Below are positions 1 to 62,295 of a DNA stretch of 64,000 nucleotides, piece by piece. The position numbers and the translations under genes were made by a program. The stretch lies in assembly GCF_028368995.1 (NCBI RefSeq), contig NZ_JAQNDL010000002.1:1312001-1376000 (forward strand), written 5' to 3'. Below the pieces are notes generated by a model that was not told the origin of the DNA, ran no database searches, and worked only from the letters and a program-made list of their open reading frames with translations. Source of the DNA: Nannocystis bainbridge. GTDB taxonomy: Bacteria > Myxococcota_A > Polyangia > Nannocystales > Nannocystaceae. Position 1 is the first letter of the stretch. Each line of letters begins with the position of its first letter.

Positions 1-260
1 CTACGACTGAAACGCTCTCGCGTGTTCCTGCGGGCAGTCCCGCGTGCTGCTGCGCTCGTGGCATGTCCTTCCGGACATATTCGCCCGCGGCCAGGGGCGC
101 GGCTCCTTGTGAGCCGTGAGGGACGGCCGCGCGGGATGGCCTCACACAATGGCGCGTGCGAGGGCCTGCGAGAGGCGCTCGGGGGCAGGAGAGGACGTCC
201 GAGGCGGCGACGGAGGTGGTCCCCGAGGATCCCCAGGCGCTGCGGGTCGAGCGGATGACA

Positions 261-302
261 TGTTCGAAGGGGCATGTCCATGAGGACATGCTCCGAAGGA
301 CA
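261..302. repeat. Array of 3 head-to-tail 14-bp palindromic units (TGTCC-N4-GGACA family)
   Basis: TGTTCgaagGGGCA / TGTCCatgaGGACA / TGCTCcgaaGGACA, ending 3 bp from the stop codon at 306; a single perfect unit also lies at 64-77. Confidence 0.85.
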
Positions 303-305
303 CCT

Positions 306-3300
306 TCAAAAGCTGCGGGCGACGGCGGCGCGGAAGTAGTTGAGGCCGAGCTCGTCGTCGAAGCCGCGGGCGTACTGCAGCATGAGGTCGATCGCGTCGC
401 CGTAGCCGAGCTTGAAGCTGGCGATGAAGCTGGCGCCGACGCCCCACTTCAGCATCTGGCGGGTGAACTTCTCGCCGTTGGCGCCCCAGGCGGCGCCCAG
501 GTCCATGAACGGGGCGAAGGTCAGGCGGCGCAGGAAGCCGGGCAAGGTGCCGAGGCCGCGCTCGACGTCGGCCAGCGGGATCCGGTACTCGACGTTGAGC
601 ACGCCGTAGTAGCGGCCGGGGAAGGCGAACGGCCGGTAGCCGCGCAGGTTGCCCCAGTCGCCGTAGGGCGCGCGCAGCAGGAAGCTGCGCAGGACCTCGG
701 CCTGCTGCGAGGTGCCGCCGAGGTAGAACGGCGAGCGGCGGCCGAGGGTGCCGGCCGAGGCGCCGCCCTCGAGCGAGAGGCCGAGCACCTGGTGGCCGCG
801 CCACGGCATGCGCAGCATCTCGACGTAGCGGCCGGTGATCCAGACGTCGGAGTAACGACCGCCGAGGTGGGGGTCGATGAGGTTGACGGTGAGGTTGGCG
901 GCGCGGCCGGTCTCGTTGCCGTAGGCGTAGCGGGTGCTGCGGCGGCCGTCGTACTCGAAGGCGAGGCTGACGGAGCCGAGGCCGCCGAGGTCGGGCAAGG
1001 TGGAGGCGGGGGCGCTGGGGTCGATGGCCGGGACGGTGCTGGCGTTGGCGTAGTGGGTGTAGGCGTAGCTGAGGCTGGCGAAGGCGTTGTGGACCGGGTG
1101 GCGCACGACGGGGACGCTGACGGAGGCGCGCGCGGTGGTGATCCGCTCGTCGTAGCCGCGCTGCAGGTAGGACGGCGGGGTGGCGCCGGGCACGAGGTCG
1201 CCGGGGCTGTCGTAGATGTAGCGCTCGAAGCTGCCGCGGCGGGCGTAGTCGCGGCTGACGAGCAGGCGGAAGTTGGGCAGGAAGCGCGCGAACTCGTAGA
1301 CGATCGAGCCGCTGGGGGCGCCGAAGGCGGTGTTGTAGCCGCCGTTGATCGAGAGGGTGTGGAACTCGAGGACGTCGCTGACGCCGATCGAGGCGCCGAT
1401 CTCGGTGCCGAAGCTGCCGGAGGTGGCAGAGGCGAGGGCGGAGGGGAAGATCGTGCGCGGGAAGAAGGTGCGGTAGGCCTTGTAACGGTGGCTCTTGAGG
1501 CTGACGGGCCGCCCGCGATCGCCCATCTCGTCAGGGGTGGGATCGTCGATGATCGGCAGCGGATCTTGCACCGGCAACGGCTCGAAGAACTGGGCCGGGT
1601 CGAGCTTCATGACCCAGAGGTCGTAGCCGTGGGCGGTGAAGCCGACGTAGACGAGGCGCTTGCCGTCGTGGCTGACGACCGGCTCGAAGGCGCCGCCGAG
1701 GACGTTGGTGACCTGATGGACGCGGCCGGTCGCGACCTCGTAGGCGTAGATGTTGAAGACGCCGTCGCGGTCGCTGTTGAAGACGACGTAGTTGCCGTCG
1801 GGGGTCCAGCTCGGCTCGCTGTCGAGGAAGCGATCGGCGGTGGCCCGCAAGGTGGTCTGAGCCTCGCGGTCGTAGATGTAGATGTCGCGCATGCCGCCCT
1901 CGCGGAAGGCGGAGTAGGCGACTTTCTTGCCGTCGGCGGACCATCGCGGGGTGGTGACGACCTGGATCCGCTCGAGCGGGGCGACCTCGGTGACATCCTT
2001 GGTGGCGAGGTCGAGGAAGGCGAGGCGCGCCTGGGCGGCGTCGTTGCGCGAGAACACGACGGTGCGACCGTCAGGCGAGACGTGCGGGTCGCGGGCGCGG
2101 GCGCCGAAGGTGAGCTGCTCGAAGTCGCCGGGGTTCTGCCGGACGTCGCGGGCGCCAGGGGCCGGCGGCCGGTAGCGCCACAGGTCGGTCCAGGAGTAGC
2201 GGAGGTCGTGCACGCCCCAGACCTCGAAGACCATGTCCTCGGAGACGCCGACGAACGAGCCGGAGGCGGCGTCCTGCAGCTCGACGATGCGCTCGACGCC
2301 GACGGACATGCCCTGCTTGCCGATGCCGACGCCCTCGCGCAGGGCGGCGCCGGTGCTGCGGATCCGGCGGATGCCAGGGTTCGAGTGGCCGTCGTCCTCG
2401 AAGTAGTAAATGTGCTGATCGTCGGGCGCCCAGAACGGGTGGCGCACGAAGTTGCCGGAGGCCTGGGCGGAGGTGGTGAAGGTGACGCGCCGCCCCTCGC
2501 GGATGCCACGGGCCCGGATCGCGCGCGCCTGGGCCTGGAAGCGGCGCACGGTGTCGAGCTCGAACTCCTCCCACAGCGTCTCCCAGCTGACGCCGAGGAC
2601 CTTCTGGACGGCGCGATTGATGGCGAACGGGAGGGTCTGGCCGCCGTAGACGTGGTTGAGCTCGGCGAGCTTGTCCTCGCCGTAGCGGTTGCTGATGTAG
2701 CGCAGGAGGTAGAGGCCGTAGAGGTAGACGCTGCTGCCGTGCGGGAAGACGTTGGCGCCGGAGGAGACGCGATCGATGGGGATGAAGCCGTGCTCGAGGA
2801 TCGGAGCGCGCAGGTACATCTCCCACTGGGTGTGGCGCCCGCGACCCTGGCTGGTGAGGCGCGACTCTTCGTGGCTGGCGAGGCCCTCGACGAACCACCG
2901 CGGCTGGATGACGTTGGGCTGCCAGACCTTGCCGGCGCGGCCGAAGCCGAGGAGGGCGTTGACGATCCGCGGGATGCCGTGCGCGGTGTCGAGGTGGATG
3001 ATGTGCGTGTATTCGTGGGTCAGGAGGATGTCGATCCAGTCGTCGTATCCCTCGAGCACGGACATCGAGTCGGGGGCGGTGACGTAGGCGACGATCCGCG
3101 GGTAAGGGCTGGTGTTGGCGAGGCCGTTGGCGGCGTCGGTGTGGTCCTGGTAGACGACGTGGGTCTTGAGCCAGGGGGCGTGCGAGAGGCTGGTCGAGAG
3201 CCGGTCGTGGGCCCGCTCGAGCACCATGGCGGCCTTCTCGGCGGCGTACTCGTTGCCCTGGTAGTAATGGACGTAGAAGTGGTCGCTCTCGAGGGTGCGC

Positions 3301-3422
3301 CAGCGCGTGTCACGGGTGGCCGCTTCGACGGGGCGCCAGCACAGGCAGGCGAGCACGAGCCCGAGCAGCGCCAGGGCCCCGCGCAGGCGGCGAGGTGCAC
3401 GGGCAGGGCGCGTCGCGGACAC
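306..3422 (-). CDS. Outer-membrane protein: N-terminal zincin-like peptidase domain, TolB/PD40 beta-propeller, C-terminal Omp85/BamA-like barrel
   Basis: Signal peptide; HEYTH...EGLA zincin motif; repeated P-x-W/VS-x-DG PD40 motifs; NLRGY motif and terminal Phe typical of Omp85 barrels. Start placed at GTG 3422, 8 nt after TAGGCT (ORF extends to 3431). Confidence 0.8.
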   Translation of the reverse strand: MSATRPARAPRRLRGALALLGLVLACLCWRPVEAATRDTRWRTLESDHFYVHYYQGNEYAAEKAAMVLERAHDRLSTSLSHAPWLKTHVVYQDHTDAANGLANTSPYPRIVAYVTAPDSMSVLEGYDDWIDILLTHEYTHIIHLDTAHGIPRIVNALLGFGRAGKVWQPNVIQPRWFVEGLASHEESRLTSQGRGRHTQWEMYLRAPILEHGFIPIDRVSSGANVFPHGSSVYLYGLYLLRYISNRYGEDKLAELNHVYGGQTLPFAINRAVQKVLGVSWETLWEEFELDTVRRFQAQARAIRARGIREGRRVTFTTSAQASGNFVRHPFWAPDDQHIYYFEDDGHSNPGIRRIRSTGAALREGVGIGKQGMSVGVERIVELQDAASGSFVGVSEDMVFEVWGVHDLRYSWTDLWRYRPPAPGARDVRQNPGDFEQLTFGARARDPHVSPDGRTVVFSRNDAAQARLAFLDLATKDVTEVAPLERIQVVTTPRWSADGKKVAYSAFREGGMRDIYIYDREAQTTLRATADRFLDSEPSWTPDGNYVVFNSDRDGVFNIYAYEVATGRVHQVTNVLGGAFEPVVSHDGKRLVYVGFTAHGYDLWVMKLDPAQFFEPLPVQDPLPIIDDPTPDEMGDRGRPVSLKSHRYKAYRTFFPRTIFPSALASATSGSFGTEIGASIGVSDVLEFHTLSINGGYNTAFGAPSGSIVYEFARFLPNFRLLVSRDYARRGSFERYIYDSPGDLVPGATPPSYLQRGYDERITTARASVSVPVVRHPVHNAFASLSYAYTHYANASTVPAIDPSAPASTLPDLGGLGSVSLAFEYDGRRSTRYAYGNETGRAANLTVNLIDPHLGGRYSDVWITGRYVEMLRMPWRGHQVLGLSLEGGASAGTLGRRSPFYLGGTSQQAEVLRSFLLRAPYGDWGNLRGYRPFAFPGRYYGVLNVEYRIPLADVERGLGTLPGFLRRLTFAPFMDLGAAWGANGEKFTRQMLKWGVGASFIASFKLGYGDAIDLMLQYARGFDDELGLNYFRAAVARSF

Positions 3423-4309: not shown

Positions 4310-4608
4310 GGGCAGGCCTCGCTGGATCGCGGCGATCCGTCCCCCAGCATGGGCCGGCATCGCGGCGCGGCTCGCTCATTTCGCGTCGGTGTGACGGCGA
4401 CCGCGAAAGCTCGCAGGAGGGGCCGGCGGGGGCGCTGGCGGGCGAAATTGGAGGAGGGCGGGCGATGATGGGGCGAGCGGAGTGTGGCGGGCCCGACGGC
4501 GGTGGATGGCGAGGTCGCGCGGGGTGATGTGGGTCGTCGGCGAGGCGAAGGTGCGGCAGAGCACCCGGGTGGGCGAGGATGCGACGCGTGAACTGGCGAG
4601 GCGTCATC

Positions 4609-4910
4609 TGCTCGAAAGGACAGGTGCGCGGGGTGTGGTGGTGTCCGAAGGGACAGGCGTCATCTGCTCGAAAGGACAGATGCGTGGGGTGTCCGAAGGG
4701 ACAGGATCGTCTGCTCGAAAGGACAGATGGGTGGTGTTGTGGCCGTATCCGAAGGGACAGGATCGTCTGCTCGAAAGGTCAGATGGGAGGTGGTGTCCGA
4801 AGGGACAGGCGTCATCTGCTCGAAAGGACAGATGCGAGGGGTGTCCGAAGGGACAGGTGCGGCACCATCTGCTCGAAAGGACAGGGGCGATGGGCCTGTC
4901 CTGAAGGACA
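4609..4910. repeat. Array of 12 palindromic 14-bp units, mostly alternating TGCTCGAAAGGACA and TGTCCGAAGGGACA, with ~8-20-bp linkers
   Basis: Units start at 4609, 4642, 4665, 4690, 4712, 4746, 4768, 4794, 4817, 4842, 4870 and 4897; directly downstream of the mnmG stop. Confidence 0.9.
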
Positions 4911-4923
4911 GGCGGCGCCGGTG

Positions 4924-11696: not shown

Positions 11697-11780
11697 GATC
11701 CGCAAGGACATGGCCTGAAGCGCATGCTCTGAAGGACATGCCTTAGAGGACATGTCGTGATGGACATGGCGTGAGGGACA
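11697..11780. repeat. Array of 6 in-register 14-bp units
   Basis: GATCCgcaaGGACA, TGGCCtgaaGCGCA, TGCTCtgaaGGACA, TGCCTtagaGGACA, TGTCGtgatGGACA, TGGCGtgagGGACA; ends 5 bp from the stop at 11786. Confidence 0.88.
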
Positions 11781-11785
11781 GGCAG

Positions 11786-13360: not shown

Positions 13361-14713
13361 TCAGTTGCGTTCGCCGGCGAGGATCGCCTTGGCGGCGTCG
13401 TGGCCGCTCTGGACCGCCGACTCGATCGTCGCGGGGAGGCCGGTGCGGACCCAGTCGCCGGCCATGTAGAGGCCGCGCACGGGGCCGGTGACTTCGGGGC
13501 GGCAGTGGTAGGTGCCGGCCGCGTGGGAGATGGTGGCGCGCTTCTCCTTGATGACCTTGAAGCGCTTGATCGCGGGACCCTGGGGGCCGGCGGCGGGGAA
13601 GTAGCGCTGCAGCTCGGACTGCAGCAGCGCCTGCAGGGTCTCGGGCGGGTCGTCGACGCAGGCCCGGGCGGCGCTGATCGTGCAGTTCATCATGGCCTCG
13701 CCGCCGACCTCGCCTTCGATGCGCGAGCGGTTGAACATCCAGTGCAGCGGGCCGGCGACCAGGCCGATGAACGGATCTTCGAACGGCGCGCGGTCGACCG
13801 AGAACCACAGGTTGACGATCGGCGACGGGCGCAGGCGGGCGATGTCCTGATAGACGGGGTGGCTCGGCAGGGCGCCCGGGAGCATGTCGAGGAAGGCCTG
13901 CGGGGGGACCGACGAGACGACCACGTCGGCCGCGAGGGTCTCGCCCGACTTGAGGGTGACGCCGGTGACGCGGGCGTTCGTGACCTCGAGCGCGCGCACC
14001 GGCTCGCCGAGGCGCAGGTCGCAGCCGCGGGCGCGCAGGTAGGCCAGCGCTTGCTCGACGTAGAGGCGCGACAGCGGGACCTTGGGCACGCCGAGGCGCG
14101 AGGCGTCGCGGCTGGTGAGGAAGGCGCGGTCGAGCACGGCGGTGAACATCGCCGCCGACGAGACCAGCGGGTCGTCGTTGAGGGTGCCCCAGATGAGCGG
14201 GTCCCAGAAGGCGTTGCGCAGGGTCGGCGTCTGGCCGAGGCGGCGCAGCCAGCTGTCGCAGGTCTCGTTGTCGTCGGGGCGCTGGACCTCGCCGCGCAGC
14301 ATGAGGCCGGCGCGCAGGGCCGCGGCCTTGTCGAGCAAGCCGAGGCCGCGCATCGTCAGCAGGCCGGTGGCGAGGTGCAGCGGCGCGGGCAGGGCCGGGC
14401 ACTGCAGGTGCAGCCGCTTGCCGCCCGGCTTCACCATCGTCACTTCGAGGTTCTTCTGGAAGTAGATGCCGTCGGTGCTGTCGATCGCGCGCAGGAACGC
14501 CAGGGTCTCGCGGTAGCAGCCCATCAGCAGGTGCTGGCCGTTGTCGACCTCGCGGTCGAGGGTGGAGTCGTGGAACGAGCGGGCCCGGCCGCCGCCGGCG
14601 CGGGTGGCCTCGATCAGGGTGACGACCCGGCCGGCCTCGGCCAGGCGCACGGCCGCGGACAGGCCGGCGAGGCCGCCGCCGATCACGATGACGCTGCGGG
14701 TGCTTTCGGACAT
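13361..14713 (-). CDS. hpnE: Hydroxysqualene dehydroxylase HpnE (FAD-dependent)
   Basis: IGGGLAGLSAA, GGRARSF, DNGQHLLMGCY, EKRAT, AGDWVRTGLPATIESAVQSG; follows hpnCD. Confidence 0.92.
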   Translation of the reverse strand: MSESTRSVIVIGGGLAGLSAAVRLAEAGRVVTLIEATRAGGGRARSFHDSTLDREVDNGQHLLMGCYRETLAFLRAIDSTDGIYFQKNLEVTMVKPGGKRLHLQCPALPAPLHLATGLLTMRGLGLLDKAAALRAGLMLRGEVQRPDDNETCDSWLRRLGQTPTLRNAFWDPLIWGTLNDDPLVSSAAMFTAVLDRAFLTSRDASRLGVPKVPLSRLYVEQALAYLRARGCDLRLGEPVRALEVTNARVTGVTLKSGETLAADVVVSSVPPQAFLDMLPGALPSHPVYQDIARLRPSPIVNLWFSVDRAPFEDPFIGLVAGPLHWMFNRSRIEGEVGGEAMMNCTISAARACVDDPPETLQALLQSELQRYFPAAGPQGPAIKRFKVIKEKRATISHAAGTYHCRPEVTGPVRGLYMAGDWVRTGLPATIESAVQSGHDAAKAILAGERN

Positions 14714-14796
14714 GACGGAAGGGACATTCTCGAGAGGACAGGGCCGAAGCGACAGGTCCGAATGGACATGTCCGCCCGGACAGGACGGTCAGGACA
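14699..14796. repeat. Array of 7 in-register 14-bp units filling the whole hpnD-hpnE spacer
   Basis: Right half-sites (GGACA, once CGACA) end at 14712, 14726, 14740, 14754, 14768, 14782 and 14796; overlaps the hpnE start and hpnD stop. Confidence 0.88.
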
Positions 14797-15706: not shown

Positions 15707-15714
15707 CGTGCGGT

Positions 15715-16782: not shown

Positions 16783-19037
<2,255 letters not shown>

Positions 19038-19041
<4 letters not shown>

Positions 19042-20033
19042 GCGAGCACCTCGACCGACGGATCGGGGCCGGGGCCGACGATGTCGACGGCGTGCACGCC
19101 GGGCACGTCGCGCAGGCGCAGCGCGAGGTCGTCGGCGTGGGCGGTCAGGCACAGCACCTTGACGTGCGGGCCGGCGTCGCTGGTGACGAAGCCCTGCAGG
19201 CCGTCGCCGCGCAGGCGCCACACGGCGTGGATGACGTCGAGGGTGGCGCCGCGCCAGTACACGATCGGCGGGCGGCTGGCCATCATGCAGGCGTGCATCT
19301 TGAAGCAGGAGTGCTCGAGGATGTCCCCGAGGACAGGTAGGTCGCGGGCCGCCAGCGCGGCCTCGGCGGCGGCGAGGTCGGCCTCGGAGGTGTCGACCCA
19401 CGGGCCGTAGTAGGGCGAGGTGTCGCGGCTGCGCTGCATGCCGGCGGTCGAGCCGAGCGACTTGGGGCCGCGCTCGGTGTGGACGATGAGCAGGCGGACG
19501 TCCCAGTGCGACTGCGGCTGCAGCGGGTAGGCCCGGCAGTCGCTGCCGTCGGGCTGCACGCCGCGGTCGAGGCGGACGAAGCCGCCCCACAGCGAGCGCG
19601 CGGCCGAGCCGGAGCCGCGGCGCGCCAGGGCCGACAGCGCGGGGCGGCCGGGCTCGTACTCGAAGGCGGCGGCGGCGGCGAGGGTCAGGGCGGCGAAGCC
19701 CGAGGCGCTGCTGGCCAGGCCGGCGGCCGTCGGCAGGTGGTTGTGCGAGGTGACGGCGCAGGTCGGACGCGCACCGGCGTGACCGGCGGCCTGCCACATG
19801 CGATCGAGGTGGCGCATGACCTTGGCCGCGACCTCGCCCGAAGCTGGCTCTTGGTTCAGGTGGAACGAGTCCTGCTCGCCGGGACCGACGGTGGTCACGC
19901 TGCGCAGGTGATCGAGGGTCAGCGACAGCGAACCGACGGCCGGCAGATTGAGGTCGGCCGGCGACGCGTCGCGCTTGCCCCAATACTTGACGAGGGCGAT
20001 GTTGGTATGGGCGACGGCCCGGGCGCTCTTCAT
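19038..20033 (-). CDS. mvaD: Diphosphomevalonate decarboxylase
   Basis: AHTNIALVKYWGK, PTAAGLASSASGFAAL, ARRGSGSAARS, TSDAGPHVK. Confidence 0.93.
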
Positions 20034-20953
20034 GACGCGGCGACCTCGACGGACAGCGGACGGAGGGTGGGGAAGGCGGCGGTGAGGCGATCGGGGGCGT
20101 CGCCGGCGAGGACCAGCAGGCAGCCGCCGCAGCCGGCCCCGGTGAGCTTGGCCCCGCGCGCGCCGGCGGCCCGCGCGTCGGCGGCCATGCGGTCGAGCGC
20201 GGGCGAGGAGACGTCGAGCGCGCCGAGCAGGCCGTGGGCGACGTCGAAGAGGACGCCGAGCGTGTCGAGGTCGCCGTGCTCGATGGCGTGGATGCCCGCC
20301 TCGACGGCCTGACCGACGGCGATCAGGACCGGGCGGACGACGCTCGGCAGGTGCTCGAGGCGGCTGCGGCAGCGCGCGACCTGATCGGCGGTGCTGCGCG
20401 GGATGCCGCTCGGGATGATGACGAGCGGCAGCGAGGCGCCGGGGTGGATGGTCCGCGGGGGCTCGCCGCGGACGTAGCGGAGGACCCCGCCCTGGGCGGC
20501 GACGCGGCTGTCGAGGCCGGACGGCTCGCCGTGGAACACGCGCTCGCCGGCCAGCGAGGCGGCGACGACGTCGTCGATGCTGGCGTCTGGCCCGAAGACC
20601 AGGCGGGCGAGGGCGACGGTGAGGGCCGCGGACGAGCCGAGGCCGGCGCGCGAGGGCAGGGCGCTGGTGCCCTGGATCGCCCAGCCGGTGACGGGGCCGT
20701 CGCAGTGGGCGAGGACCTCGAGGCAGGCACGCGCGACCGGATGATCGCTGCCAGGATGCAGCTCGAGGTCGAGGTCCCAGGCGGGGATCTCGAGGGTGAT
20801 CGGCAGGCGCGGATCGGGCCGCGGGCGCGCCTCGAGCACGATGCCCTGCGGCAGGCCGGCGGCGACGGCCGGGTAGCCGTAGACGACGGCGTGCTCGCCG
20901 AGCACGATGACCTTGCCGTGGGCCTCGGCGCGCGCGTGCAGCGGGATGGTCAT
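20030..20953 (-). CDS. mvk: Mevalonate kinase
   Basis: HGKVIVLGEHAVVYG, GLGSSAA, ERVFHGEPSGLD, GAKLTGAGCGG; ATGA overlap with the fni stop. Confidence 0.92.
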   Translation of the reverse strand: MTIPLHARAEAHGKVIVLGEHAVVYGYPAVAAGLPQGIVLEARPRPDPRLPITLEIPAWDLDLELHPGSDHPVARACLEVLAHCDGPVTGWAIQGTSALPSRAGLGSSAALTVALARLVFGPDASIDDVVAASLAGERVFHGEPSGLDSRVAAQGGVLRYVRGEPPRTIHPGASLPLVIIPSGIPRSTADQVARCRSRLEHLPSVVRPVLIAVGQAVEAGIHAIEHGDLDTLGVLFDVAHGLLGALDVSSPALDRMAADARAAGARGAKLTGAGCGGCLLVLAGDAPDRLTAAFPTLRPLSVEVAAS

Positions 20954-22249: not shown

Positions 22250-22319
22250 TGACCGATCGGGCATGTCCGATCGAGAATGTTCTGAAGGACATGTCGTGAG
22301 GGGCATGTCCCAAGGGGCT
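22250..22319. repeat. Array of 5 in-register 14-bp units in a divergent intergenic region
   Basis: TGACCgatcGGGCA, TGTCCgatcGAGAA, TGTTCtgaaGGACA, TGTCGtgagGGGCA, TGTCCcaagGGGCT. Confidence 0.85.
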
Positions 22320-25336: not shown

Positions 25337-25420
25337 TGTCGCATGGGGCATGCCGTAAGGGGCATGTCCCTTCGCGCATGTCGCGAAGAGCATGTCCCGA
25401 CGAACATGCTCAAGCGTTCA
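25337..25420. repeat. Array of 5-6 in-register 14-bp units
   Basis: TGTCGcatgGGGCA, TGCCGtaagGGGCA, TGTCCcttcGCGCA, TGTCGcgaaGAGCA, TGTCCcgacGAACA, TGCTCaagcGTTCA; overlaps the stop at 25410. Confidence 0.85.
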
Positions 25421-28809: not shown

Positions 28810-28811
28810 TG

Positions 28812-34784: not shown

Positions 34785-34846
34785 GGCGGTCAGGCCAGGC
34801 GACATGGCGCCGGGGACATGTCTGAAGATCCATGTGCGAAGGGACA
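34728..34846. repeat. Array of about 8 14-bp units overlapping the lipoprotein start and signal peptide
   Basis: TGGCGcgagGGACA, GGGCGaacaGGACA, GGCGCaaaaGCCCA, TGTGCgaagGGACA, TGGCGgtcaGGCCA, a 7-bp offset, TGGCGccggGGACA, TGTCTgaagATCCA, TGTGCgaagGGACA. Confidence 0.8.
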
Positions 34847-34852
34847 TGGCGA

Positions 34853-38529: not shown

Positions 38530-38613
38530 GGGTGTCCGCGACATGTGCTTCAGGACATGCTCGTTCGGGCATGCTCTTCGGGACATGACCGATTGGGCAT
38601 GCCCTCGAGGTCA
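38530..38613. repeat. Array of 6 in-register 14-bp units
   Basis: GGGTGtccgCGACA, TGTGCttcaGGACA, TGCTCgttcGGGCA, TGCTCttcgGGACA, TGACCgattGGGCA, TGCCCtcgaGGTCA (the last TCA is the stop of the GH13 gene). Confidence 0.87.
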
Positions 38614-41056: not shown

Positions 41057-43675
41057 ATGATCCGAGCTTCCTCCGTCGCCCTACTGGCCGCGCTGACGTC
41101 GACCTCGCTCGCCGCGCCGGCGACCGCCGCCGAGCCGCAACGGACCCGCTTCGCGCTGCCCAGCAGCAACGGCTGGGGCGCGCTCCTGGTCGACCTCAAG
41201 GCCGGCAAGGCGACCGAGCTGCGCGAGCACGTGTTCGCGGCCGAGGAGCCGAAGATCGACGAGCAAGGTCAGGACATCTGGGACGGCGAACAATTCGCGA
41301 CGGTGCACACGCGCGATGTCTTGTACGACGCGTACTTCGGCGTTCGCGCCGAGGGCGAGCAGCTGTGGCTGCCGTCGGTGCCGGTCGACGAGGACGCCAG
41401 CGGTTACTACGCGTGGAGCGACAGCGAGGAGGTCGGCACCGGCATCGTGAAGATGGTGCAGCCGCTCGGGGCGCTCGAGGCAACGACCTTCGCGTTCGCG
41501 CCGCAGGGCCTCGAGGCGGCCGGGATGGTGCTGCTGCTGCGGCTCAAGAACACCGGGGCGCAGCCGCTGCAGGGGGTGCAGGCGTTCTCGCTGCACAACT
41601 TCCACCTCGGGTCCGGGCGCCCGAACCGGCCGTGGGACGTGCACGAAGACATCGGCAACAACGGCGAGACGCTCGAGTTCGTCGGCGGCGCCGAGGCCCG
41701 CTTCCGCGAGCGCGGGTTCGCCGGCACGATCGTGACGCGAGCGCTGGCGCCGATCGTGCACCGCGGGGTCGGGCCGGGCGTCGATCTGTTCGCGCTGGTC
41801 GATCAGGGGCTGGCCGATCTGCCCGACAACATGGCGCCGGCCAACGCGGTCGACAACGCGACCTCGGCGTTCCAGTGGAACGTCGGCGCGCTGGCGCCGG
41901 GCGCCGAGGCGTGGATCGGGATCGCGGCGATCCACCGCGGCGATCCGTTCGCCGGCGCGGAGGCCGAGACGACCCTCGACGCGTGGATCGACGGCGTCGG
42001 CCCGCAGCTGCTGCTGGCCCGCGAGCGCGCGGTGTGGGCCGACCTCCACCAGCAGCAGTCGAAGCTGCCGGACGGGCTGGCCGCGGCCGAGGTGCCCATG
42101 CTGCGCCAGGCAGTAGCGATGTTGCACATGGGACAGGTCCTCGAGGACAGGTCGTTCGCGCGCGAGTGGCTGAGCCAGGACGGCGAGCCGCGGCGCACCC
42201 GCTTCCCCGGGCTCGACGACGAGCCCGCGATGCTACCGGCGTGGATCAAGCACCGCGGCCGGGGGGCGGTGCTGGCCAGCCTGCCGCCGGGCGAGTGGAC
42301 CTACGCGTGGATCCGCGACGGCGCCTACGCGACCACGGCGATGGCGGCGCTGGGGATGAAGGAGCACGCGCGGGCGTCGCTCGCCTACTACCTCGACGCC
42401 GAGGCCGGGCGGTTCCAGCAGTGGACCGAGCTGCAGCCGTACAGCATGCCGCCGTACCAGATCAGCCTGGTGCGCTACTTCGGGTTCGGGGTCGAGGAGA
42501 CCGACTTCAACGCGTTCGGGCCCAACCTCGAGTTCGACGGCTTCGGCCTGTTCCTGTGGGCGCTGCGGGCCTACGAGGTGCTGAGCGGCGACACCTCGCT
42601 GGCCGACGCGCGCTGGGAGCAGGTCGCGACCGAGGTCGCCGACGTCCTGGTCGCGCTGGTCGACCCCGAGACCGGGATGATCCGGCCCGACTCGTCGATC
42701 TGGGAGACGCACTGGCTCGGGCGCCAGCGGCGGTTCACGTACACCAGCATCACCGCCGCGCGCGGGCTGTGCGACGCGGCCGCCATCGCCGAGCGCCGCG
42801 GCGACGCTGTCCGTGCGGACATGTACAAGAAGACAGGTGAATCGATCCGCGCCGCCATCGCCGCGCGCGCCACCGACGGCGACGGGGCGCTGGCTGGCAG
42901 CGTCGAGGAGCTGGCGACCGGCGAGGGTTACTTCGACGCGGCGGTGTGGGACGCGATCGCCATGGGCCTGTTCGATCCGCAGGGCCCGATCGCGCAGGCG
43001 ACCTTCGCCGGGCTCGACGAGCACCTGCGCGTCGACGCCGGGGTCGGGTGGTCGCGCAACGACGACCGCTGGGACCACGCGATGATGGAGGACGCGACTC
43101 CGTGGGGCAGCGACTACGACAGCGCCGAGTGGGTCATCACCGACCTGCGCGGCTCGGTGGCGCTGCGCAAGGCCGGCGAGGCGGCGCGGGCCGACGCGCT
43201 GAACGAGTGGGTGCGCGAGCAGGCGGCCACCAACTACTACATGACCGCGGAGACGTTCGACGAGAAGACCGGCGTGTACAAGTTCAACTCGCCGATGCTC
43301 GGCTTCGGCGCCGGGGCTTACGCGCTGGCGCTGGCCCACCGCGCGGGGGCGTTCGCCGACCCGGCCTGCGGCGCCTACTTCGTCGAGGAGGACGTCGATC
43401 CGACCACGAGCACCGGCACCGACACCGGCGAGACGACGACCACCGGCGCGCCCGACCCGACGACCGCGGCGCCGACCACCGGCACCAATTCGACGGGCAC
43501 GACGAGCGAGGGCGAGACCGCGACGACGAGCGTGTCGAGCGCGGGCTCGGCGACCGCGGGGCTCACGGGTGGGACCAGCGAGGATGGCTGCGGATGCACG
43601 TCGGGCGGACCTGGAGCGCCGGCGGCGCTGCTGCTGCTCGGGCTCGTGGTTCGGCGTCGGCGTCGGCGCGCTTGA
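41057..43675 (+). CDS. Secreted GH15 glucoamylase-like glycoside hydrolase with a MYXO-CTERM-type sorting tail
   Basis: Signal peptide; GAVLAS...WTYAWIRDG; SIWE; Thr-rich linker; GCGC + hydrophobic + RRRRRR C-terminus. Confidence 0.82.
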   Translation: MIRASSVALLAALTSTSLAAPATAAEPQRTRFALPSSNGWGALLVDLKAGKATELREHVFAAEEPKIDEQGQDIWDGEQFATVHTRDVLYDAYFGVRAEGEQLWLPSVPVDEDASGYYAWSDSEEVGTGIVKMVQPLGALEATTFAFAPQGLEAAGMVLLLRLKNTGAQPLQGVQAFSLHNFHLGSGRPNRPWDVHEDIGNNGETLEFVGGAEARFRERGFAGTIVTRALAPIVHRGVGPGVDLFALVDQGLADLPDNMAPANAVDNATSAFQWNVGALAPGAEAWIGIAAIHRGDPFAGAEAETTLDAWIDGVGPQLLLARERAVWADLHQQQSKLPDGLAAAEVPMLRQAVAMLHMGQVLEDRSFAREWLSQDGEPRRTRFPGLDDEPAMLPAWIKHRGRGAVLASLPPGEWTYAWIRDGAYATTAMAALGMKEHARASLAYYLDAEAGRFQQWTELQPYSMPPYQISLVRYFGFGVEETDFNAFGPNLEFDGFGLFLWALRAYEVLSGDTSLADARWEQVATEVADVLVALVDPETGMIRPDSSIWETHWLGRQRRFTYTSITAARGLCDAAAIAERRGDAVRADMYKKTGESIRAAIAARATDGDGALAGSVEELATGEGYFDAAVWDAIAMGLFDPQGPIAQATFAGLDEHLRVDAGVGWSRNDDRWDHAMMEDATPWGSDYDSAEWVITDLRGSVALRKAGEAARADALNEWVREQAATNYYMTAETFDEKTGVYKFNSPMLGFGAGAYALALAHRAGAFADPACGAYFVEEDVDPTTSTGTDTGETTTTGAPDPTTAAPTTGTNSTGTTSEGETATTSVSSAGSATAGLTGGTSEDGCGCTSGGPGAPAALLLLGLVVRRRRRRA

Positions 43676-43709: not shown

Positions 43710-45398
43710 ATGACCGCGCCGCCCCTGCTCGTCGCCTACTTCTCGATGGAGATCGCCCTGTCGAGCGAGCTCCCGACGTACGCGGGCGGGCTCGGGGTGC
43801 TCGCCGGCGACCATTTGCGGGCGGCGGCCGACACTGGCCTGGCGCTGGTCGGGGTGACCTTGCTGTACCGCAAGGGTTACTTCCGCCAGGTCCTCGACGC
43901 GCAGGGCCACCAGCAGGAGCGCGACGTCCAGTGGCTGCCCGAGCATCACCTCGAGCGGGTGTCGACGCAGGTCACCGTCAGCATCGAGGGCCGCGAGGTG
44001 AGGGTGGGGGCGTGGCAGACCTGGATCGCCGGCGCCGGCGGCGGGCGGGTCCCGGTCTACATGCTCGACACCGACATCGACGGCAACGGCGAGGAGGACC
44101 GCCGGATCACCGATCACCTGTACGGCGGCGAGGAGCGCTATCGGCTGCAGCAGGAGGCGGTGCTCGGGCTCGGCGGGCGGCGCCTGCTGGCCGCGCTCGA
44201 GCTGAAGCCGACCCGCTACCACCTCAACGAGGGCCACTCGTCGCTGCTCGCGCTCGAGCTGCTGGCGATCGAGATGTCCTCCGGGACAGGTGAAGACGCC
44301 GACCTCGCGGCCGCGATCGCGGCGGTGCGCGAGCGCTGCGTGTTCACCACCCACACCCCGATCCCGGCCGGCCACGATCGCTTCCCCAGGGCGCTGGCGA
44401 CCGCGGTGCTCGGGCGCGAGCTGGTCGACCTGTACGCCCGCCTGCCGACCCCGCACAGCGCCGAGATCAACATGAGCGCGCTGGGCATCGAGCTCAGCGG
44501 GTTCGTCAACGGCGTGTCGCATCGCCACGCCGAGGTCTCGGCCGGCATGTTCCCCGGGCGGCCGATCCACGCCATCACCAACGGCGTCCACTCGGCCACC
44601 TGGACCGCCCCTGCCATGCGCGCCGTGTTCGACCGCTGGATCCCCGAGTGGCGGCGGCACGCCCACGCCCTGCGGCAGGCCCAGAAGATCCCGACCGACG
44701 CCATCGTCGCCGCCCACCGCGAGGCCAAGCGCGCGCTCGTCGACGAGATCAACCGCCACGGCGACCACAACTTCGGCGAGGAGCGGTTCACTCTCGGCTT
44801 CGCCCGTCGCGCCACCGCTTACAAGCGCATGCTGCTGATCTTGCGCGACGTCCGGCGCCTGCGCGAGATCGCCAGCCGCTGGGGCGCGCTGCAGATCGTG
44901 TTCGCCGGCAAGGCCCACCCGCGCGACCTCGAGGGCAAGCGCATGATCGAGGCCGTGTTCCGCCAGCAGGAGGTCGTGCTGCCGTCGGTGCGGATCGCGT
45001 TCTTGCCCGGCTACGACATGCGCCTCGGCGGGCTCGTGACCGCCGGCGTCGACCTGTGGCTGAACACGCCGATGGCCCCGCTCGAGGCCTCGGGCACCAG
45101 CGGCATGAAGGCCGCCCACAACGGCGTGCCCAACCTCAGCGTGCGCGACGGCTGGTGGTGCGAGGGCTACATCGAGGGCCAGACCGGCTGGGTGCTGGCG
45201 CCCGGCCACCCGAGCGACGACGCCGACGCGGCCCAGCTGTACCGCGTGCTCGACGAGGAGGTCCTGCCGCTGTACCTCGGCGCGCCCGAGCGGTGGGCCG
45301 AGCGCATGCGGGCCAGCATCGCCCTCGCGGCCAGCTACTTCAACGCGCACCGGATGGTCGGCGAGTACCTCGAGCGGGCCTACGCGCCGCGCTGGTAG
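43710..45398 (+). CDS. glgP: Alpha-glucan (glycogen/maltodextrin) phosphorylase
   Basis: VAYFSME, YAGGLGVLAGDH, HLNEGH, ITNGVH, FARRATAYKR, EASGTSGMK (PLP lysine). Confidence 0.93.
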   Translation: MTAPPLLVAYFSMEIALSSELPTYAGGLGVLAGDHLRAAADTGLALVGVTLLYRKGYFRQVLDAQGHQQERDVQWLPEHHLERVSTQVTVSIEGREVRVGAWQTWIAGAGGGRVPVYMLDTDIDGNGEEDRRITDHLYGGEERYRLQQEAVLGLGGRRLLAALELKPTRYHLNEGHSSLLALELLAIEMSSGTGEDADLAAAIAAVRERCVFTTHTPIPAGHDRFPRALATAVLGRELVDLYARLPTPHSAEINMSALGIELSGFVNGVSHRHAEVSAGMFPGRPIHAITNGVHSATWTAPAMRAVFDRWIPEWRRHAHALRQAQKIPTDAIVAAHREAKRALVDEINRHGDHNFGEERFTLGFARRATAYKRMLLILRDVRRLREIASRWGALQIVFAGKAHPRDLEGKRMIEAVFRQQEVVLPSVRIAFLPGYDMRLGGLVTAGVDLWLNTPMAPLEASGTSGMKAAHNGVPNLSVRDGWWCEGYIEGQTGWVLAPGHPSDDADAAQLYRVLDEEVLPLYLGAPERWAERMRASIALAASYFNAHRMVGEYLERAYAPRW

Positions 45399-45422: not shown

Positions 45423-45561
45423 TAAACTTTGGGGCATGTTCCGTAGGACATGTCGGACATGGACAATAGCCTGAGAGGCGTGGCGCGTGCATGGCTCTCA
45501 GGACATGTCGTCAAGAGCATGCGCTTCAGGACATGCCCTGGCGGACATGGCCTCAGAGATA
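45423..45561. repeat. Two sub-arrays of 14-bp units between convergent glgP and epimerase genes
   Basis: TGTTCcgtaGGACA (45437); TGGCTctcaGGACA, TGTCGtcaaGAGCA, TGCGCttcaGGACA, TGCCCtggcGGACA, TGGCCtcagAGATA (45492-45561). Confidence 0.85.
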
Positions 45562-46554
45562 GCCGTTGGCCGCGAACCACTCGGCCGCGCGGCGCAGGGT
45601 CTCGTCGAGCGGGCGGACGGTGAAGCCGAGCTCCTCGCGGGCCTTGCGGTTGTCGAAGTGCAGCGCCTGGCTGGCGTAGGCGACCGAGCCGGCGGTGATC
45701 AGCGGCTCCTTGCCGGTGACGCGGTCGGCCAATTGCTCGAGCGCCCAGCCGGCCGCGCGGGCCATGGCGACCGGGGTGGAGAACATCTTGTGGCGCATGC
45801 CGAGCACGCGCCGCATCTCGGCCACCAGGGCGAAGATGTCGAGGTTGTGGCCGGTCAGCAGGTAGCATTCGCCGCGGCGGCCGCGTTCTTCGGCGAGCAG
45901 GTGGCCGCGCGCGACGTCCTCGACGTCGACGATGTTGAGGCCGCCGGCGAAGCACACGCGGATCCGTCCGCTGAGCGCGTCGACCAGGGTCTTGCCGGTC
46001 GGGGTCGGGCCGACGTCGCCGGGGCCGAGCGGCATGCCGGGGCCGACGACGGTGACGTCGACCAGCGGCGCGAACGCCAGCGCGACCTGCTGGCCGAGGT
46101 ACTTCGAGCGCACGTAGTCGAAGCTGCCGGCCCACAGGTTGAACGGGGTCGCCTCGTCCGAGGGCACCCCGTCCTCGCGCACGCCGACGGCGGCGATCGA
46201 GCTGGTGTAGACGACCTTGCGCACCCCGGCCTCGGCCGCCGCGGCCAGCACGTTGGCGGTGCCGGTGACGTTGACGTCGTAGATGACCTTTGGGTCAGGT
46301 ACCCAGGTACGGTAGACGGCGGCCAGGTGGTAGACGACGTCGCAGCCGCGGACCAGCGTGCGCATGCGATCGCGGTCGAGGACGTCGGCCTCGACGCGCT
46401 CGACCCGCGCGGGGTCGATGCCGGCGAGGTTGCGCGGATCTTCGCCCGGGCGCAGCACCGCCCGCACGGGGCGCCCTTGCTCGACCAGCAGGCGGACGAC
46501 GTGATGACCGATGAAGCCGGCGGCGCCGGTCACGAGCACGGGGGCGGCGGACAT
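45553..46554 (-). CDS. NAD-dependent epimerase/dehydratase (HpnA / dihydroflavonol-reductase-like extended SDR)
   Basis: VLVTGAAGFIG, YHLAA.Y, NVTGT, YVRSK, GPGDVGPTPTG. Confidence 0.88.
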   Translation of the reverse strand: MSAAPVLVTGAAGFIGHHVVRLLVEQGRPVRAVLRPGEDPRNLAGIDPARVERVEADVLDRDRMRTLVRGCDVVYHLAAVYRTWVPDPKVIYDVNVTGTANVLAAAAEAGVRKVVYTSSIAAVGVREDGVPSDEATPFNLWAGSFDYVRSKYLGQQVALAFAPLVDVTVVGPGMPLGPGDVGPTPTGKTLVDALSGRIRVCFAGGLNIVDVEDVARGHLLAEERGRRGECYLLTGHNLDIFALVAEMRRVLGMRHKMFSTPVAMARAAGWALEQLADRVTGKEPLITAGSVAYASQALHFDNRKAREELGFTVRPLDETLRRAAEWFAANGYL

Positions 46555-55662: not shown

Positions 55663-56127
55663 GTGTTCATCCGCCTCCGCGCCGCCCGGCCCGAAGACTG
55701 GACCGGGAAGCTCAGCGACTTCCTCGTCGGCCTGGTGTTCCTCGCGGCGTCGGTCGCGGTGCTGCTGGCGCGCCTGCCCGAGGCGTGGGTGGCCGCGGTC
55801 GACGGCCGCAGCTGGATCATCCGCGTGGGCCTGATCGTCGTGCTGCTGTGGCTGAACCAGTGGGTCGGCAACCTGGTCCGCACCGTCCTGCCGCGCGCGC
55901 CGTACCTGTTCGGCCGCACCTTGACGATCCGCGAGCGCGGCCGCCGGGTCCGCCTGCCGGTCCGCGAGATCGCCCGCATCTACGTCGAGCCGCGCCCGCC
56001 CGGCGAGCGCGACACCTTCGTGGTCGCGCTCAAGAACGGCGAGACCTACGACCTGTGCCCGATCGCCTGGCAGGGCGCCGCCCGCCTGTACGCCCGCCTG
56101 GCCCGCGCGCTGCCGCGGCCGCGCTGA
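55663..56127 (+). CDS. Hypothetical membrane protein
   Basis: Two TM segments followed by a small beta-rich domain. Confidence 0.65.
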   Translation: MFIRLRAARPEDWTGKLSDFLVGLVFLAASVAVLLARLPEAWVAAVDGRSWIIRVGLIVVLLWLNQWVGNLVRTVLPRAPYLFGRTLTIRERGRRVRLPVREIARIYVEPRPPGERDTFVVALKNGETYDLCPIAWQGAARLYARLARALPRPR

Positions 56128-56152: not shown

Positions 56153-56250
56153 TGGTCGCAGGGACATGTCCTTGTGGGCAGGCCCTCAGGGACAGGGGCG
56201 AGCGGACAGGTCCTTCGGGGCAGGTTCCTGAGGACAGGTCCCCGAGGACA
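56153..56250. repeat. Array of 7 in-register 14-bp units between convergent genes
   Basis: GG(A/G)CA ends at 56166, 56180, 56194, 56208, 56222, 56236 and 56250. Confidence 0.88.
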
Positions 56251-56273: not shown

Positions 56274-57329
56274 TCAGGTCGGCAGGCGCGAGACCTGCAG
56301 CGTGTACTCGCTGCACGATTGGTCGTTGGCGACGCGGATCACCCGGATGAACACCTTGGCCGGCCAGGGCACGTTGTTGAGGTAGTTGGGGTTGGGGTTG
56401 GGGTTGGGGTTCGGCGGGGAGTGGGCGTCGAAGAACTCCCACTCGCGGGCCGGCGGGGTGCCGGGGCCGTAGGTCGCGGCCAGGCCCTCGAAGGCCGGCT
56501 TGTTGCAGGCGGTGTAGACCTCGAAGCGGTAGTCGGGGCTGGTGGGGTCGCCCGGGTTGACCGCGAAGGTGGCGGCGATCTTGCCGGCGTTGGGCCGGTT
56601 GCCCATCGCCATGGCCTCGGGGAACTCGACCCAGTACCAGTCCTCCTGGCCGTTGCCGGGGCCGTTGTCGATCCCGGTGATCGAGCCCTTGATCGGGGGG
56701 ACGACGCCGCCCTCGGCGATCACCCCGAGAGCGCCGGCCATGCCCTCGGCGCAGGTGTCCGAGGCCTTGGCGTCGGGCGTGACCGCGCACTCGCAATCCG
56801 AGCCGTCGGAGGCGTCGGGGTTGGCGTCGTCGCAGTCGGGGCCGGGCTCGTCGGGGCCGTACTGATCGCAGCCGACCCAGAAGCCGTCGCCGTCCTGGTC
56901 GACGCAGGTGCCGCAGCTCTGCCACGAGTTGAAGCTGGTGTCGTCGCAGTCGGGGCCGGCGTTGCAGCCCTCGCCGTGGAGATCGCCGTCGTCGTCGACG
57001 CAGTCCGGGTCGGGCAGGGTGGTGGTGCCGGCCGTGGTCGGACCGCCGGTGGGATCGCTGCCGGTCGGGTCGGAGTCGGAGCCCGGCCCCGGGCCGGTCG
57101 GGGTGCTCGTGTCCGAGTCGGTCATGCTGCCGCCGACGGTCGGGGTCGAATCCGTGTCGCTGCCGGGCTGGGTGGTCCCGCTCATGCTGTTGCTGTTGCC
57201 CTGGCTCTCGAACGGATTGGTCGAGCCGACCCCCGGATCTCCACCCGCGCACGCGCCCAGGTGCGCAGCGGCGGTGAGCACGAGCGAGAGCCTGACGAGG
57301 GTCGGGGTGGGCCTGGACGCGCCGAGCAT
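56274..57329 (-). CDS. Cys/Asp-rich secreted lipoprotein
   Basis: LGAC lipobox; Ser/Thr linker; CVDDDGD..G..C..GPDCDD repeats; C-terminal EDWYWV...YTLQV domain. Confidence 0.8.
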   Translation of the reverse strand: MLGASRPTPTLVRLSLVLTAAAHLGACAGGDPGVGSTNPFESQGNSNSMSGTTQPGSDTDSTPTVGGSMTDSDTSTPTGPGPGSDSDPTGSDPTGGPTTAGTTTLPDPDCVDDDGDLHGEGCNAGPDCDDTSFNSWQSCGTCVDQDGDGFWVGCDQYGPDEPGPDCDDANPDASDGSDCECAVTPDAKASDTCAEGMAGALGVIAEGGVVPPIKGSITGIDNGPGNGQEDWYWVEFPEAMAMGNRPNAGKIAATFAVNPGDPTSPDYRFEVYTACNKPAFEGLAATYGPGTPPAREWEFFDAHSPPNPNPNPNPNYLNNVPWPAKVFIRVIRVANDQSCSEYTLQVSRLPT

Positions 57330-61460: not shown

Positions 61461-61502
61461 GGTCCGGGCCGCGGCGGCGGCATCTGTTATGGTTGCGCCG
61501 CC

Positions 61503-62105
61503 ATGTGGAAGAAGCTGGCGATCGTCCTGTTGGTGGTGCTGCTGCTGGTCGGCGGCGTCGTCACCTATCTGTGGCTGCAGGTCACGGCGCTGCCGGACTG
61601 GTACACCGAGCTGGCGCAGGAGGGCGCGCCCGCGGCGGCCGAGGACGCCGGCGGCAAGCTGCAGTGGCAGCCCGCGGAGGGCCAGGCCGGCCGCAAGGAG
61701 CTGCGTAACTTCCACCGCAAGGCGGCCCGCTCGAGCCCGGAGGTCAAGGAGGTGATCAAGGCCTCGCGCGCGACCTTCGAGGACGGCCGGCTCGAGGCCG
61801 GGGTGGTCGCCGACCTGCGCAAGCTGCCGCAAGACAAGCTGAGCGGCGACCAGCAGGGCCTGTTCGAGCGCGCCCGCCAGTCCTTCCCGTCGCTGACCGA
61901 GCGCGACGTGTACATCGGCGTCGAGGACCCGTCGCCGATCGTCAAGGACGGCCGGGTGACGATGGGCCCGAGCGCGCGGGTCAAGATCGGCAAGTTCACG
62001 TACGCGCTCGACAGCGCGGCCCAGAAGCTCGGCATGACCCCGGACCAGCTGCGCGGCGAGCTCGAGAAGAACATGCGCGAGCTCGGGGTCGAGGCGCCGA
62101 ACTGA
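61503..62105 (+). CDS. Hypothetical membrane-anchored protein
   Basis: N-terminal TM then ALPDWY; coding-like codon bias. Confidence 0.7.
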   Translation: MWKKLAIVLLVVLLLVGGVVTYLWLQVTALPDWYTELAQEGAPAAAEDAGGKLQWQPAEGQAGRKELRNFHRKAARSSPEVKEVIKASRATFEDGRLEAGVVADLRKLPQDKLSGDQQGLFERARQSFPSLTERDVYIGVEDPSPIVKDGRVTMGPSARVKIGKFTYALDSAAQKLGMTPDQLRGELEKNMRELGVEAPN

Positions 62106-62295
62106 CGCTCGGGACATGTCGTGAGGGGCATGTCCGAGAAGGCATGCGCTTCAGGACATGTATGTCGGTACATGTCCGAAGATACATATACTGGGTGTGT
62201 CTGCGAGGACATGTCCTTCAGCACTTGTCCCGAAGCTCATGTCCTTGGGTCCATGTATGGATGGACATGTCCTTGGGGGCATGACCCCATGACCA
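62103..62295. repeat. Array of about 13 14-bp units filling the convergent intergenic region
   Basis: Six in-register units at 62103-62186 starting on the upstream TGA stop, an 11-bp break, then seven units at 62198-62295 ending 6 bp from the cls stop. Confidence 0.9.

Follow-up and report, generated by a model that had tools for sequence, protein, structure and literature searches.

A short palindromic DNA word, TGTCC-N4-GGACA, pervades a 64,000-nt stretch of the forward strand of Nannocystis bainbridge (assembly GCF_028368995.1, contig NZ_JAQNDL010000002.1, positions 1,312,001–1,376,000; hereafter the window) and recurs almost two thousand times in the genome, both as single sites and in head-to-tail arrays with a 14-bp period. 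The arrays lie mostly just past the 3' ends of genes, share a junction that is conserved among related species and fold into stable hairpins. We lean, with some hesitation, towards reading the word as a clade-specific dyad recognized by a protein, comparable to the highly iterated palindrome (HIP1) or the DNA uptake sequence (DUS), that accumulates at 3' ends, where its arrays also fold like repetitive extragenic palindromes (REP) and bacterial interspersed mosaic elements (BIME). The window has a G+C content of 70–75% and corresponds to C3:1312001-1376000 of an 11.05-Mb genome in five contigs (labeled G000). Its gene content is myxobacterial in flavour, and the best named match of its MnmG is from Enhygromyxa salina (65% identity).

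The window contains 14 strict copies of the word against 0.06 expected from 100 dinucleotide shuffles, none of which reached 14, and 24 matches to the looser form TG[TCG]CC-N4-GG[AG]CA. Genome-wide (11 Mb), the exact word occurs 1987 times, compared to 3 times for the reversed word. The 5+4+5 palindrome that an initial annotation had described as pervading the window is thus real. The same annotation had counted more than 100 copies by eye, including degenerate ones, and this too is consistent with our scan: a lax 6-bit matrix, which is too permissive to count single units, found 288 units in the window and 133 in its reverse, an excess of ~155. The 1987 exact copies divide into 403 in arrays, 890 elsewhere between genes and 694 (35%) within genes. 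The word therefore reaches the one to two orders of magnitude of over-representation that mark a HIP-type palindrome and, like such palindromes, is present inside open reading frames (ORFs) as well as between them and is retained at orthologous positions.

Arrays consist of units joined head to tail, so that GGACA/TGTCC junctions place the tetramer CATG every 14 bases, as is evident when the sequence is printed in 14-base rows. All ten 14-bp-period arrays reported earlier for the window (at 261, 11697, 14699, 22250, 25337, 28740, 38530, 45492, 56153, and 62103) were present, with 3–16 units each. Tandem Repeats Finder gave a period of 14 at seven of these ten, with 11697, 14699, 22250, 25337, 38530, and 45492 among the matches listed, and, also among the matches listed, a period of 14 or 42 at 31755 and 35923, inside ORFs. 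Across the genome, distances from one CATG to another peak at 14 (3736), 28 (2073), and 42 bp (1586), with further peaks at 56 and 70 bp, over a background of ~100–300. Defining an array as at least three units in a weight-matrix scan, and using the reversed genome as a control, we counted 1443 arrays against 4 triples in the control. Together they cover 88 kb, or 0.8% of the genome.

The oriented array unit reads CATG-(T/C)CC-N4-GG(A/G), with CC at frequencies of 0.8–0.87 and GG at 0.63–0.66; its core is invariant and the N4 variable. Exact single sites have an additional preference for R-(C/G)-(C/A) on the 5' side of TGTCC and for the mirror image on the 3' side of GGACA, giving the consensus (R-C-M)TGTCC-N4-GGACA(K-G-Y). 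The full word is therefore ~20 bp long, and in an array each such word shares six bases with the next. Within the N4, the palindromes GATC (5.5x) and TCGA (3.3x) are favored. Stem pairing is broken in many units, as had been noted before: only 30% of 3736 units retain all three arm pairs. This breakage largely tracks GC skew. Regions of positive skew retain the G arm (0.82/0.81 vs. 0.71/0.63) and regions of negative skew the reverse, and the overall asymmetry (~0.8 vs. 0.67) appears passive, since a background G:C ratio of ~1.2 would give about as much. For the junction variants CAGG and CCTG, the split between replichores is ~3:1, much stronger than that background, with the G-rich variant on the G-rich strand, and it is independent of the direction of transcription; this bias was noted genome-wide and at the arrays starting at 14701 and 56165. 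Among in-array hexamers, ACATGC/GCATGT are over-represented (452 and 362 vs. 373 and 280 expected), and the palindromic ACATGT and GCATGC are under-represented (376 and 147 vs. 463 and 225). Neighboring units are scarcely more alike than random pairs (0.448 vs. 0.428). Two regularities were considered and rejected: a 28-bp super-unit, as similarity between units is flat at lags 1 to 4, and an orientation of arrays along the upstream gene, which seemed to hold in the window and gave 157 vs. 119 in ++ gaps and 133 vs. 118 in -- gaps genome-wide.

The word is also strongly enriched within coding sequence. In 6739 array-free genes we found 517 exact copies, compared to 3.8 after the codon-preserving shuffling that the initial annotation had proposed as a check, a 136-fold excess. 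Seven control palindromes of like composition occurred at expectation in the same genes. The genic copies are evenly distributed along genes and prefer frame 2 (307/158/52), using the common codons GTC and GAC. In the window, earlier reports of in-frame arrays inside proteins hold for two cases, starting at 31754 and 35893, where the same frame keeps its coding potential on both sides of the array. Weaker genic candidates at 5306–5347 and 40627–40668 were inspected; that in mnmG coincides with conserved residues and thus does not represent an insertion. The single sites said to overlie conserved genes are also there: six strict genic sites (Table 1), most of them kept in five relatives. Window genic sites are mostly retained in relatives without insertions or deletions. 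Arrays confound ORF calling, being open in several frames and supplying an ATG codon every 14 bases.

To place the arrays relative to genes, we relied on our own crude calls from codon statistics (7969 genes, 82.5% of the genome), on which all placement figures depend; most calls in the window are backed by Pfam. Gaps between convergent genes hold an array most often (584 of 1471, 40%), followed by tandem gaps (527 of 5023, 10%) and divergent gaps (65 of 1470, 4%); a further 267 of the 1443 arrays fall inside gene calls. The distance from an array to a neighboring 3' end has a median of 17 bp and a lower quartile of 4 bp, compared to a median of 180 bp to a neighboring 5' end, and the stop codon shares the register of the array (CA-TGA) in 141 of 1077 array-stop pairs. 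The tandem gaps that contain an array are long (median 265–289 bp vs. 91–98 bp), so arrays mostly mark the ends of transcription units; 108 of the 527 tandem-gap arrays lie at most 30 bp from the next start. Arrays do not have the make-up of intrinsic terminators, a G+C-rich hairpin followed by a U-tract: T-runs within 100 nt past the stop follow 43 of 924 convergent and 26 of 397 tandem array genes, and are similarly rare without arrays (3–6.5% of genes overall). Codon usage is slightly more typical in the genes upstream of arrays (p = 4e-27), and stretches without GC skew carry no arrays, both suggesting an old, native feature. No gradient of sites along the contigs was visible by eye. Two 100-kb bins of contig C1 (~1.1–1.3 Mb) have a GC skew near zero and no arrays, and are possibly a recently acquired segment. 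Sharp changes in the sign of the skew occur at ~1.5 Mb of C3 (plus to minus, terminus-like) and ~4.4 Mb of C1 (minus to plus, origin-like); the window lies ~150 kb from the C3 switch, with a skew magnitude of ~0.09.

The word and the phased arrays differ in taxonomic range. A survey of relatives, which had also been proposed earlier, showed enrichment of the word in each of the 11 genomes that represent the genus, as well as in two sister genera. A pattern of four consecutive array junctions occurs 409–869 times in six large genomes of the genus (11–13 Mb), 1–13 times in five smaller or more fragmented members and never in 20 genomes from other genera. Of 300 additional genomes from the phylum, only 11 had any match, with 1–5 each, and those printed were plain tandem repeats. 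The bare word has 1550–2090 copies in the array-rich genomes and 114–959 in the array-poor members of the genus (controls 1–6), 87 and 161 in the two sister genera, and 0–7 elsewhere. As the bare word is wider in range than the arrays, it came first and the arrays are a later elaboration. In the array-poor genome G009, the word stands alone or in clusters with different spacings (21, 27, 36, and 48 bp), and in several printed examples the single sites stand just past a stop codon (TGA GGC TGTCC...). Clusters on contig C1 of that genome, such as 627265–627320, 640731–640852, and 808447–808616, have spacings of 21, 36, or 48–60 bp, mostly multiples of three, and may represent protein repeats kept in frame or arrays of a different kind. 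An empty site could also be recognized: between the convergent genes ending at 45398 and 45553, the stops are 12 bp apart in the array-poor genome G004, whereas array-rich species carry an array of 70–150 bp there.

Comparison of nine orthologous array loci in G000 and up to five relatives (six species) revealed an array in every species that could be mapped. Identity is 85–97% at junction bases, a figure inflated by an aligner that favors CATG on CATG, 58–75% in the arms, and 47–51% in the N4. At the 11699 locus all five relatives have an array at the same place, with spacers diverged; the CATG columns are invariant in the six species, and the remaining intergenic DNA is unalignable. The number of units has shifted by two (28 bp) at two loci. 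Within the genome, 37 of 1443 arrays share any 28-mer with another, and 1980 of 2900 units are distinct. The arrays are thus unlike miniature inverted-repeat transposable elements, with their many near-identical copies, terminal inverted repeats, and target-site duplications. A search of G000 (90.5% complete) for a RAYT/Y1 transposase (IS200/IS605-like, PF01797) gave no match, whereas control genomes gave matches. No Rfam 15 covariance model matched anywhere in the window at gathering thresholds, nor in 11600–14900 at E-values up to 1. Viral contigs had no match to a perfect two-unit array pattern, and published full text, queried among other terms with the 10-mer GGACATGTCC and excluding supplementary tables, yielded no description of the repeat.

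We wondered whether the word is read as a hairpin or as duplex DNA. The initial annotation had preferred a dimeric-protein site over a hairpin; a specific dyad word under sequence constraint stands, and the dismissal of hairpins was too strong. When 150 arrays, sampled from the 855 that have four or more units, were folded on both strands, the median z was -4.3 relative to dinucleotide shuffles and the median energy -36 kcal/mol, and 85% of the arrays had a z below -2. Arm positions facing each other across the N4 covary, weakly but significantly for two pairs (z 7.6 and 7.1; 1.2 for the third), whereas positions across CATG are anti-correlated. Two stable loop sequences, TTCG/CGAA (4.9x) and GAAG/CTTC (4.1x), are likewise in excess in the N4. 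On the other side, a single unit offers a stem of only 5 bp. The palindrome extends into the N4, with GATC favored and positions 3–6 covarying as well (z 4.6), a pairing that no hairpin with a loop of at least 3 nt could use. Neither loop types nor junction variants show a sense-strand preference in tandem gaps; both follow the replichore. The flanks of single sites show base preferences on each side and no pairing covariation (72.6% paired vs. 73.3% in shuffles; 53 sites). These features, together with the invariant core around a variable N4, the lack of a RAYT and, above all, the enrichment within genes, fit recognition of two half-sites by a protein.

The word is most simply viewed as two independent half-sites on duplex DNA, read by a candidate dimeric, sequence-specific protein. 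Its ~2000 exact and several thousand degenerate copies per genome would have been amplified by direct selection for binding or by a molecular drive tied to the reader, a mechanism also suggested for uptake signals and for HIP1 of cyanobacteria. Copies would survive where they are tolerated: mostly just past stops, above all between convergent genes, and, within genes, in permissive frames or variable loops. In the sub-clade with large genomes, copies appear to have been concatenated head to tail through a shared CA/TG junction, giving the 14-bp period, and the resulting ~1400 phased arrays per genome mark the ends of transcription units. Both strands of an array can form very stable hairpins, so a REP/BIME-like action in 3' untranslated regions (UTRs) is probable, by termination or by protection of mRNA. 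More speculatively, the word could belong to an undescribed genome-wide DNA-word system of Myxococcota, a counterpart of HIP1 or DUS, whose candidate dimeric reader polymerises on the sub-clade arrays, by now a standard feature of transcription-unit ends; such arrays might, for instance, block transcription or supercoiling from both directions, or act as a signal for uptake or recombination.

Several observations weigh against a protein-read word. The arm covariation and the enrichment of loop sequences speak for pairing in single strands, although template-switch correction of quasi-palindromes, a process that requires no function, could be another source of both. The lack of covariation in the flanks comes from a test limited to 53 sites from three genomes. 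By eye, only two of nine groups of genic sites are exact in all mapped species, and conservation of genic sites above that of the surrounding coding sequence is not shown. Neighboring 20-bp sites overlap by 6 bp in arrays, which may hinder side-by-side binding of dimers. The crude gene calls put an error on the exact distances to starts and stops, and the inflation of junction identity by the aligner counts here too. Finally, no reader was found among the DNA methyltransferase families of the genus: D12-class (10 of 11 genomes), C5 (3 of 11), and N6_N4 (11 of 11) enzymes neither separate array-rich from array-poor genomes nor track the abundance of the word. The D12-class adenine methyltransferase, present once per genome, has an open frame of 678–679 residues in four array-rich genomes and 336–479 in the other six, open-frame length not being the same as gene length in DNA of high G+C content.

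A possible, if doubtful, alternative is a REP-like hairpin acting in single strands, as 3' UTR RNA or single-stranded DNA. Stacked arrays would then end or protect transcripts in both directions, and genic copies would be by-products of whatever spread the element. The position of arrays directly past stops and at transcription-unit ends fits such an element, as do the single sites of G009 that follow stops, the folding of the arrays, the covariation of the arms, the preferred loops, and the scarcity of T-runs in a genome nearly without U-tract terminators, and E. coli REPs are reported to be dual terminator-stabilisers (bioRxiv 10.64898/2026.03.23.713779). The hairpin is harder to reconcile with a 136-fold enrichment in coding sequence, where hairpins should be neutral or harmful, or with conservation of the exact sequence beyond mere pairing. 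The 5-bp stems with non-covarying flanks, the 30% of array units that are fully paired, the lack of sense-strand preference, and the absence of a RAYT gene from G000 and of Rfam families from the window also count against it, as do arrays in short gaps that look internal to operons, such as that at 14701–14784.

A literal version of the model in the initial annotation is unlikely: an architectural, nucleoid-associated dimer would polymerise along the arrays (four helical turns per three units), and would organise the chromosome or else insulate convergent genes from each other's supercoiling. Positive supercoils are expected between convergent genes, where arrays are most enriched, and the dyad with its independent half-sites, the strict 14-bp phasing across species, and the 28-bp steps in unit number would suit such a protein; HIP1 has been proposed to serve nucleoid structure (PMC5861425). 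Yet there is no candidate protein, and the distribution tracks gene ends and not even spacing, without a gradient along contigs by eye. Such a 3'-end distribution is common to REP, DUS pairs, and other tolerated repeats. Five genomes of the genus, moreover, have hundreds of single words without phased arrays, so arrays are not needed for the basic role of the word. Least of all do we expect a functionless fossil, left by the burst of a now extinct miniature mobile element in the ancestor of the clade and decaying since. Few arrays share sequence as recent copies would, foreign-looking stretches such as C1 1.1–1.3 Mb lack arrays, relatives have empty sites, and the asymmetry of decay follows GC skew. 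Decay alone would not be expected, though, to keep junctions at 85–97% identity next to spacers at ~50% and unalignable intergenic DNA, to retain the array in all mappable species at nine of nine loci, or to produce a new exact site in G000 through three adjacent substitutions.

Table 1 Palindromic sites, arrays, and related repeats in the window (relatives as in the text).
Feature	Position	Strand	Context and relatives
Single strict palindrome	64..77		Downstream of gene ending at 306
3-unit array	263..304		Abuts stop (306–308) of minus-strand gene 306..3356
Complex tandem repeat	4599..4914		Period 48–56 bp, ~5 copies; just downstream of mnmG stop (4924)
6-unit array	11699..11782		Abuts stop (11786) of Orn/DAP decarboxylase-like gene
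6-unit array	14701..14784		Fills the 75 bp that separate two minus-strand genes (stop 14789, start 14713)
Strict site	17466..17479		HMG-CoA reductase fusion gene; strict in G000 alone, three adjacent substitutions relative to 5 relatives
Strict site	19322..19335		Diphosphomevalonate decarboxylase gene; identical in 5 relatives
4-unit array	22252..22307		Upstream of gene 20950..22014(-), where no gene is called; 4 species have shorter related arrays
4–5-unit array	25339..25408		Abuts stop (25410) of ALO/FAD oxidase gene; arrays in 5/5 relatives
Two arrays	28665–28720 and 28742–28811		Between gene 26764..28476(-) and stop (28812) of gene 28812..32702(-)
Strict site	31013..31026		Gene 28812..32702(-); strict in 4/6 species, TGGCC in the other two
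8-unit array	31754..31865	-	Inside 1296-aa gene 28812..32702(-); coding potential dips within array
4–6-unit array	34742..34848		Abuts stop (34853) of gene 34853..37102(-)
8–9-unit array	35893..36046	-	Inside gene 34853..37102(-)
Strict site	37356..37369		Gene 37186..38340(+); kept in the 4 relatives aligned there (site outside the G005 row)
5-unit array	38542..38611		Abuts stop (38611) of alpha-amylase-domain gene
Strict site	42808..42821		Glucoamylase-family gene; strict in 2/6 species, TGCCC in the others
Strict site	44275..44288		Phosphorylase-family gene; variable surface loop (EMSSGTGED), different sequence in array-poor relatives
Arrays	45423..45559		Fill gap between convergent genes 43710..45398(+) and 45553..46554(-)
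5–6-unit array	56165..56248		Between convergent genes 55663..56127(+) and 56274..57329(-)
Two arrays	62105–62188 and 62210–62307		16 units by lax matrix; fill gap between convergent genes 61503..62105(+) and 62302..63771(-)

Individual loci in the window (Table 1) show how the arrays vary. The array at 14701 is 93% conserved in relatives, with two extra units in G003, and the junctions of the array at 56165 are mostly of the CAGG variant, both in G000 and in the four relatives mapped there. The genic array at 35893 includes a 42-bp repeat (3 units, 14 codons) in three copies with 95% identity. At the positions equivalent to 34700–34870 in G001 and G007, the array and an adjacent stretch appear to be tandemly duplicated. 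The repeat behind mnmG is out of the 14-bp register: it has five strict palindromes, and the strict palindrome TGTCCGAAGGGACA alternates in it with a longer second inverted repeat of another hairpin type, CATCTGCTCGAAAGGACAGATG. A BLAST search restricted to matches of at least 300 bp gave no alignment of it with five related species. An unrelated tandem repeat of 36–37 bp (25095–25247; 4.1 copies, 96% matches) lies between a HAD hydrolase gene ending at 25023 and the array at 25339. Among the neighboring genes, a minus-strand cluster at 13361–22014 is a mevalonate/isoprenoid operon, with two squalene/phytoene synthases, an amine oxidase, an HMG-CoA reductase fused to a GHMP kinase, a mevalonate diphosphate decarboxylase, another GHMP kinase, and an FMN-dependent dehydrogenase, and a lipoxygenase gene is located at 26764–28476.

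Palindromes of the HIP1 and REP type have been functionally unexplained for decades, and the word described here provides an independent case in another phylum. It also comes with a natural series: sister genera with 87–161 copies, members of the genus with hundreds of single sites and few or no arrays, and a sub-clade with ~1400 arrays per genome. With this gradient, phylogenetic profiling becomes a feasible way to look for the reader, and the function of the single word can be separated from that of the array. If arrays end or insulate transcription units, they would explain how transcripts are delimited in large genomes with 71–72% G+C and nearly without U-tract terminators.

Among known systems, HIP1 of cyanobacteria is described as exceeding expectation 15- to 300-fold and as conserved inside ORFs as well as between them (PMC5861425), with its function debated between nucleoid structure and DNA uptake (PMC5861425, PMC13756078). 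To that extent the two are alike: both are short, hyper-abundant, lineage-restricted palindromes that occur in and between genes and are conserved among relatives. HIP1, however, is a contiguous octamer, GCGATCGC, of cyanobacteria, whereas the word here is a bipartite 5-N4-5 sequence in a myxobacterium-like host, strongly biased to 3' ends and forming head-to-tail arrays of 14-bp period. To our knowledge, such arrays have not been described for HIP1. HIP-type words also have cognate orphan methyltransferases with specificity for part of the word; no such enzyme was identified here among the D12, C5, and N6_N4 families, none of which tracks the abundance of arrays or of the word.

The REP and BIME of enterobacteria and pseudomonads are lineage-specific extragenic palindromes, often clustered, that lie at 3' ends and in convergent gaps and fold in the transcript. 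The arrays here resemble them in part: they favor 3' ends and fold well, but 694 of the 1987 exact words and 267 of the 1443 arrays lie in gene calls, and single units have a 5-bp stem without flank covariation. G000 differs in having no RAYT/Y1 transposase and 35% of exact copies within genes. Units here are 14 bp with a 5-bp arm and abut in one register; REPs are ~20–40 nt and alternate with spacers. Proposed functions of REPs include terminators, mRNA stabilisers, DNA-protein binding sites, and terminator-stabilisers in 3' UTRs (bioRxiv 10.64898/2026.03.23.713779).

The DUS of Neisseria and the uptake signal sequence (USS) of Pasteurellaceae resemble the word in being specific to a clade and present roughly once per few kb. 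Their genic copies lie in permissive frames and variable regions, and inverted pairs behind genes resemble terminators; by analogy, a drive exerted by a reader protein would explain copies inside genes with no need for each site to be selected. Both DUS and USS are asymmetric, and their role in uptake was shown by experiment, whereas the word here is palindromic and forms arrays. The 5-N4-5 geometry, suited to a helix-turn-helix dimer, is that of FNR/CRP operators, the FNR consensus being a 5-N4-5 inverted repeat. Such operators are located in promoters and number tens to hundreds; the word occurs in thousands of copies, including in genes, and its arrays are not placed at promoters, divergent gaps being the poorest. 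The dRS3/NIME sequences of Neisseria are short inverted repeats that punctuate variable intergenic segments at a spacing of 50–150 bp and act as integration sites, and the RPE of Rickettsia are palindromic insertions of 100–150 bp tolerated in frame in protein genes. The word shares with dRS3 a conserved inverted repeat in intergenic arrays, and with RPE the in-frame tolerance in genes; unlike the word, neither forms a 14-bp phased array. The parS, Noc, SlmA, and matS sites number tens, far below the thousands found here.

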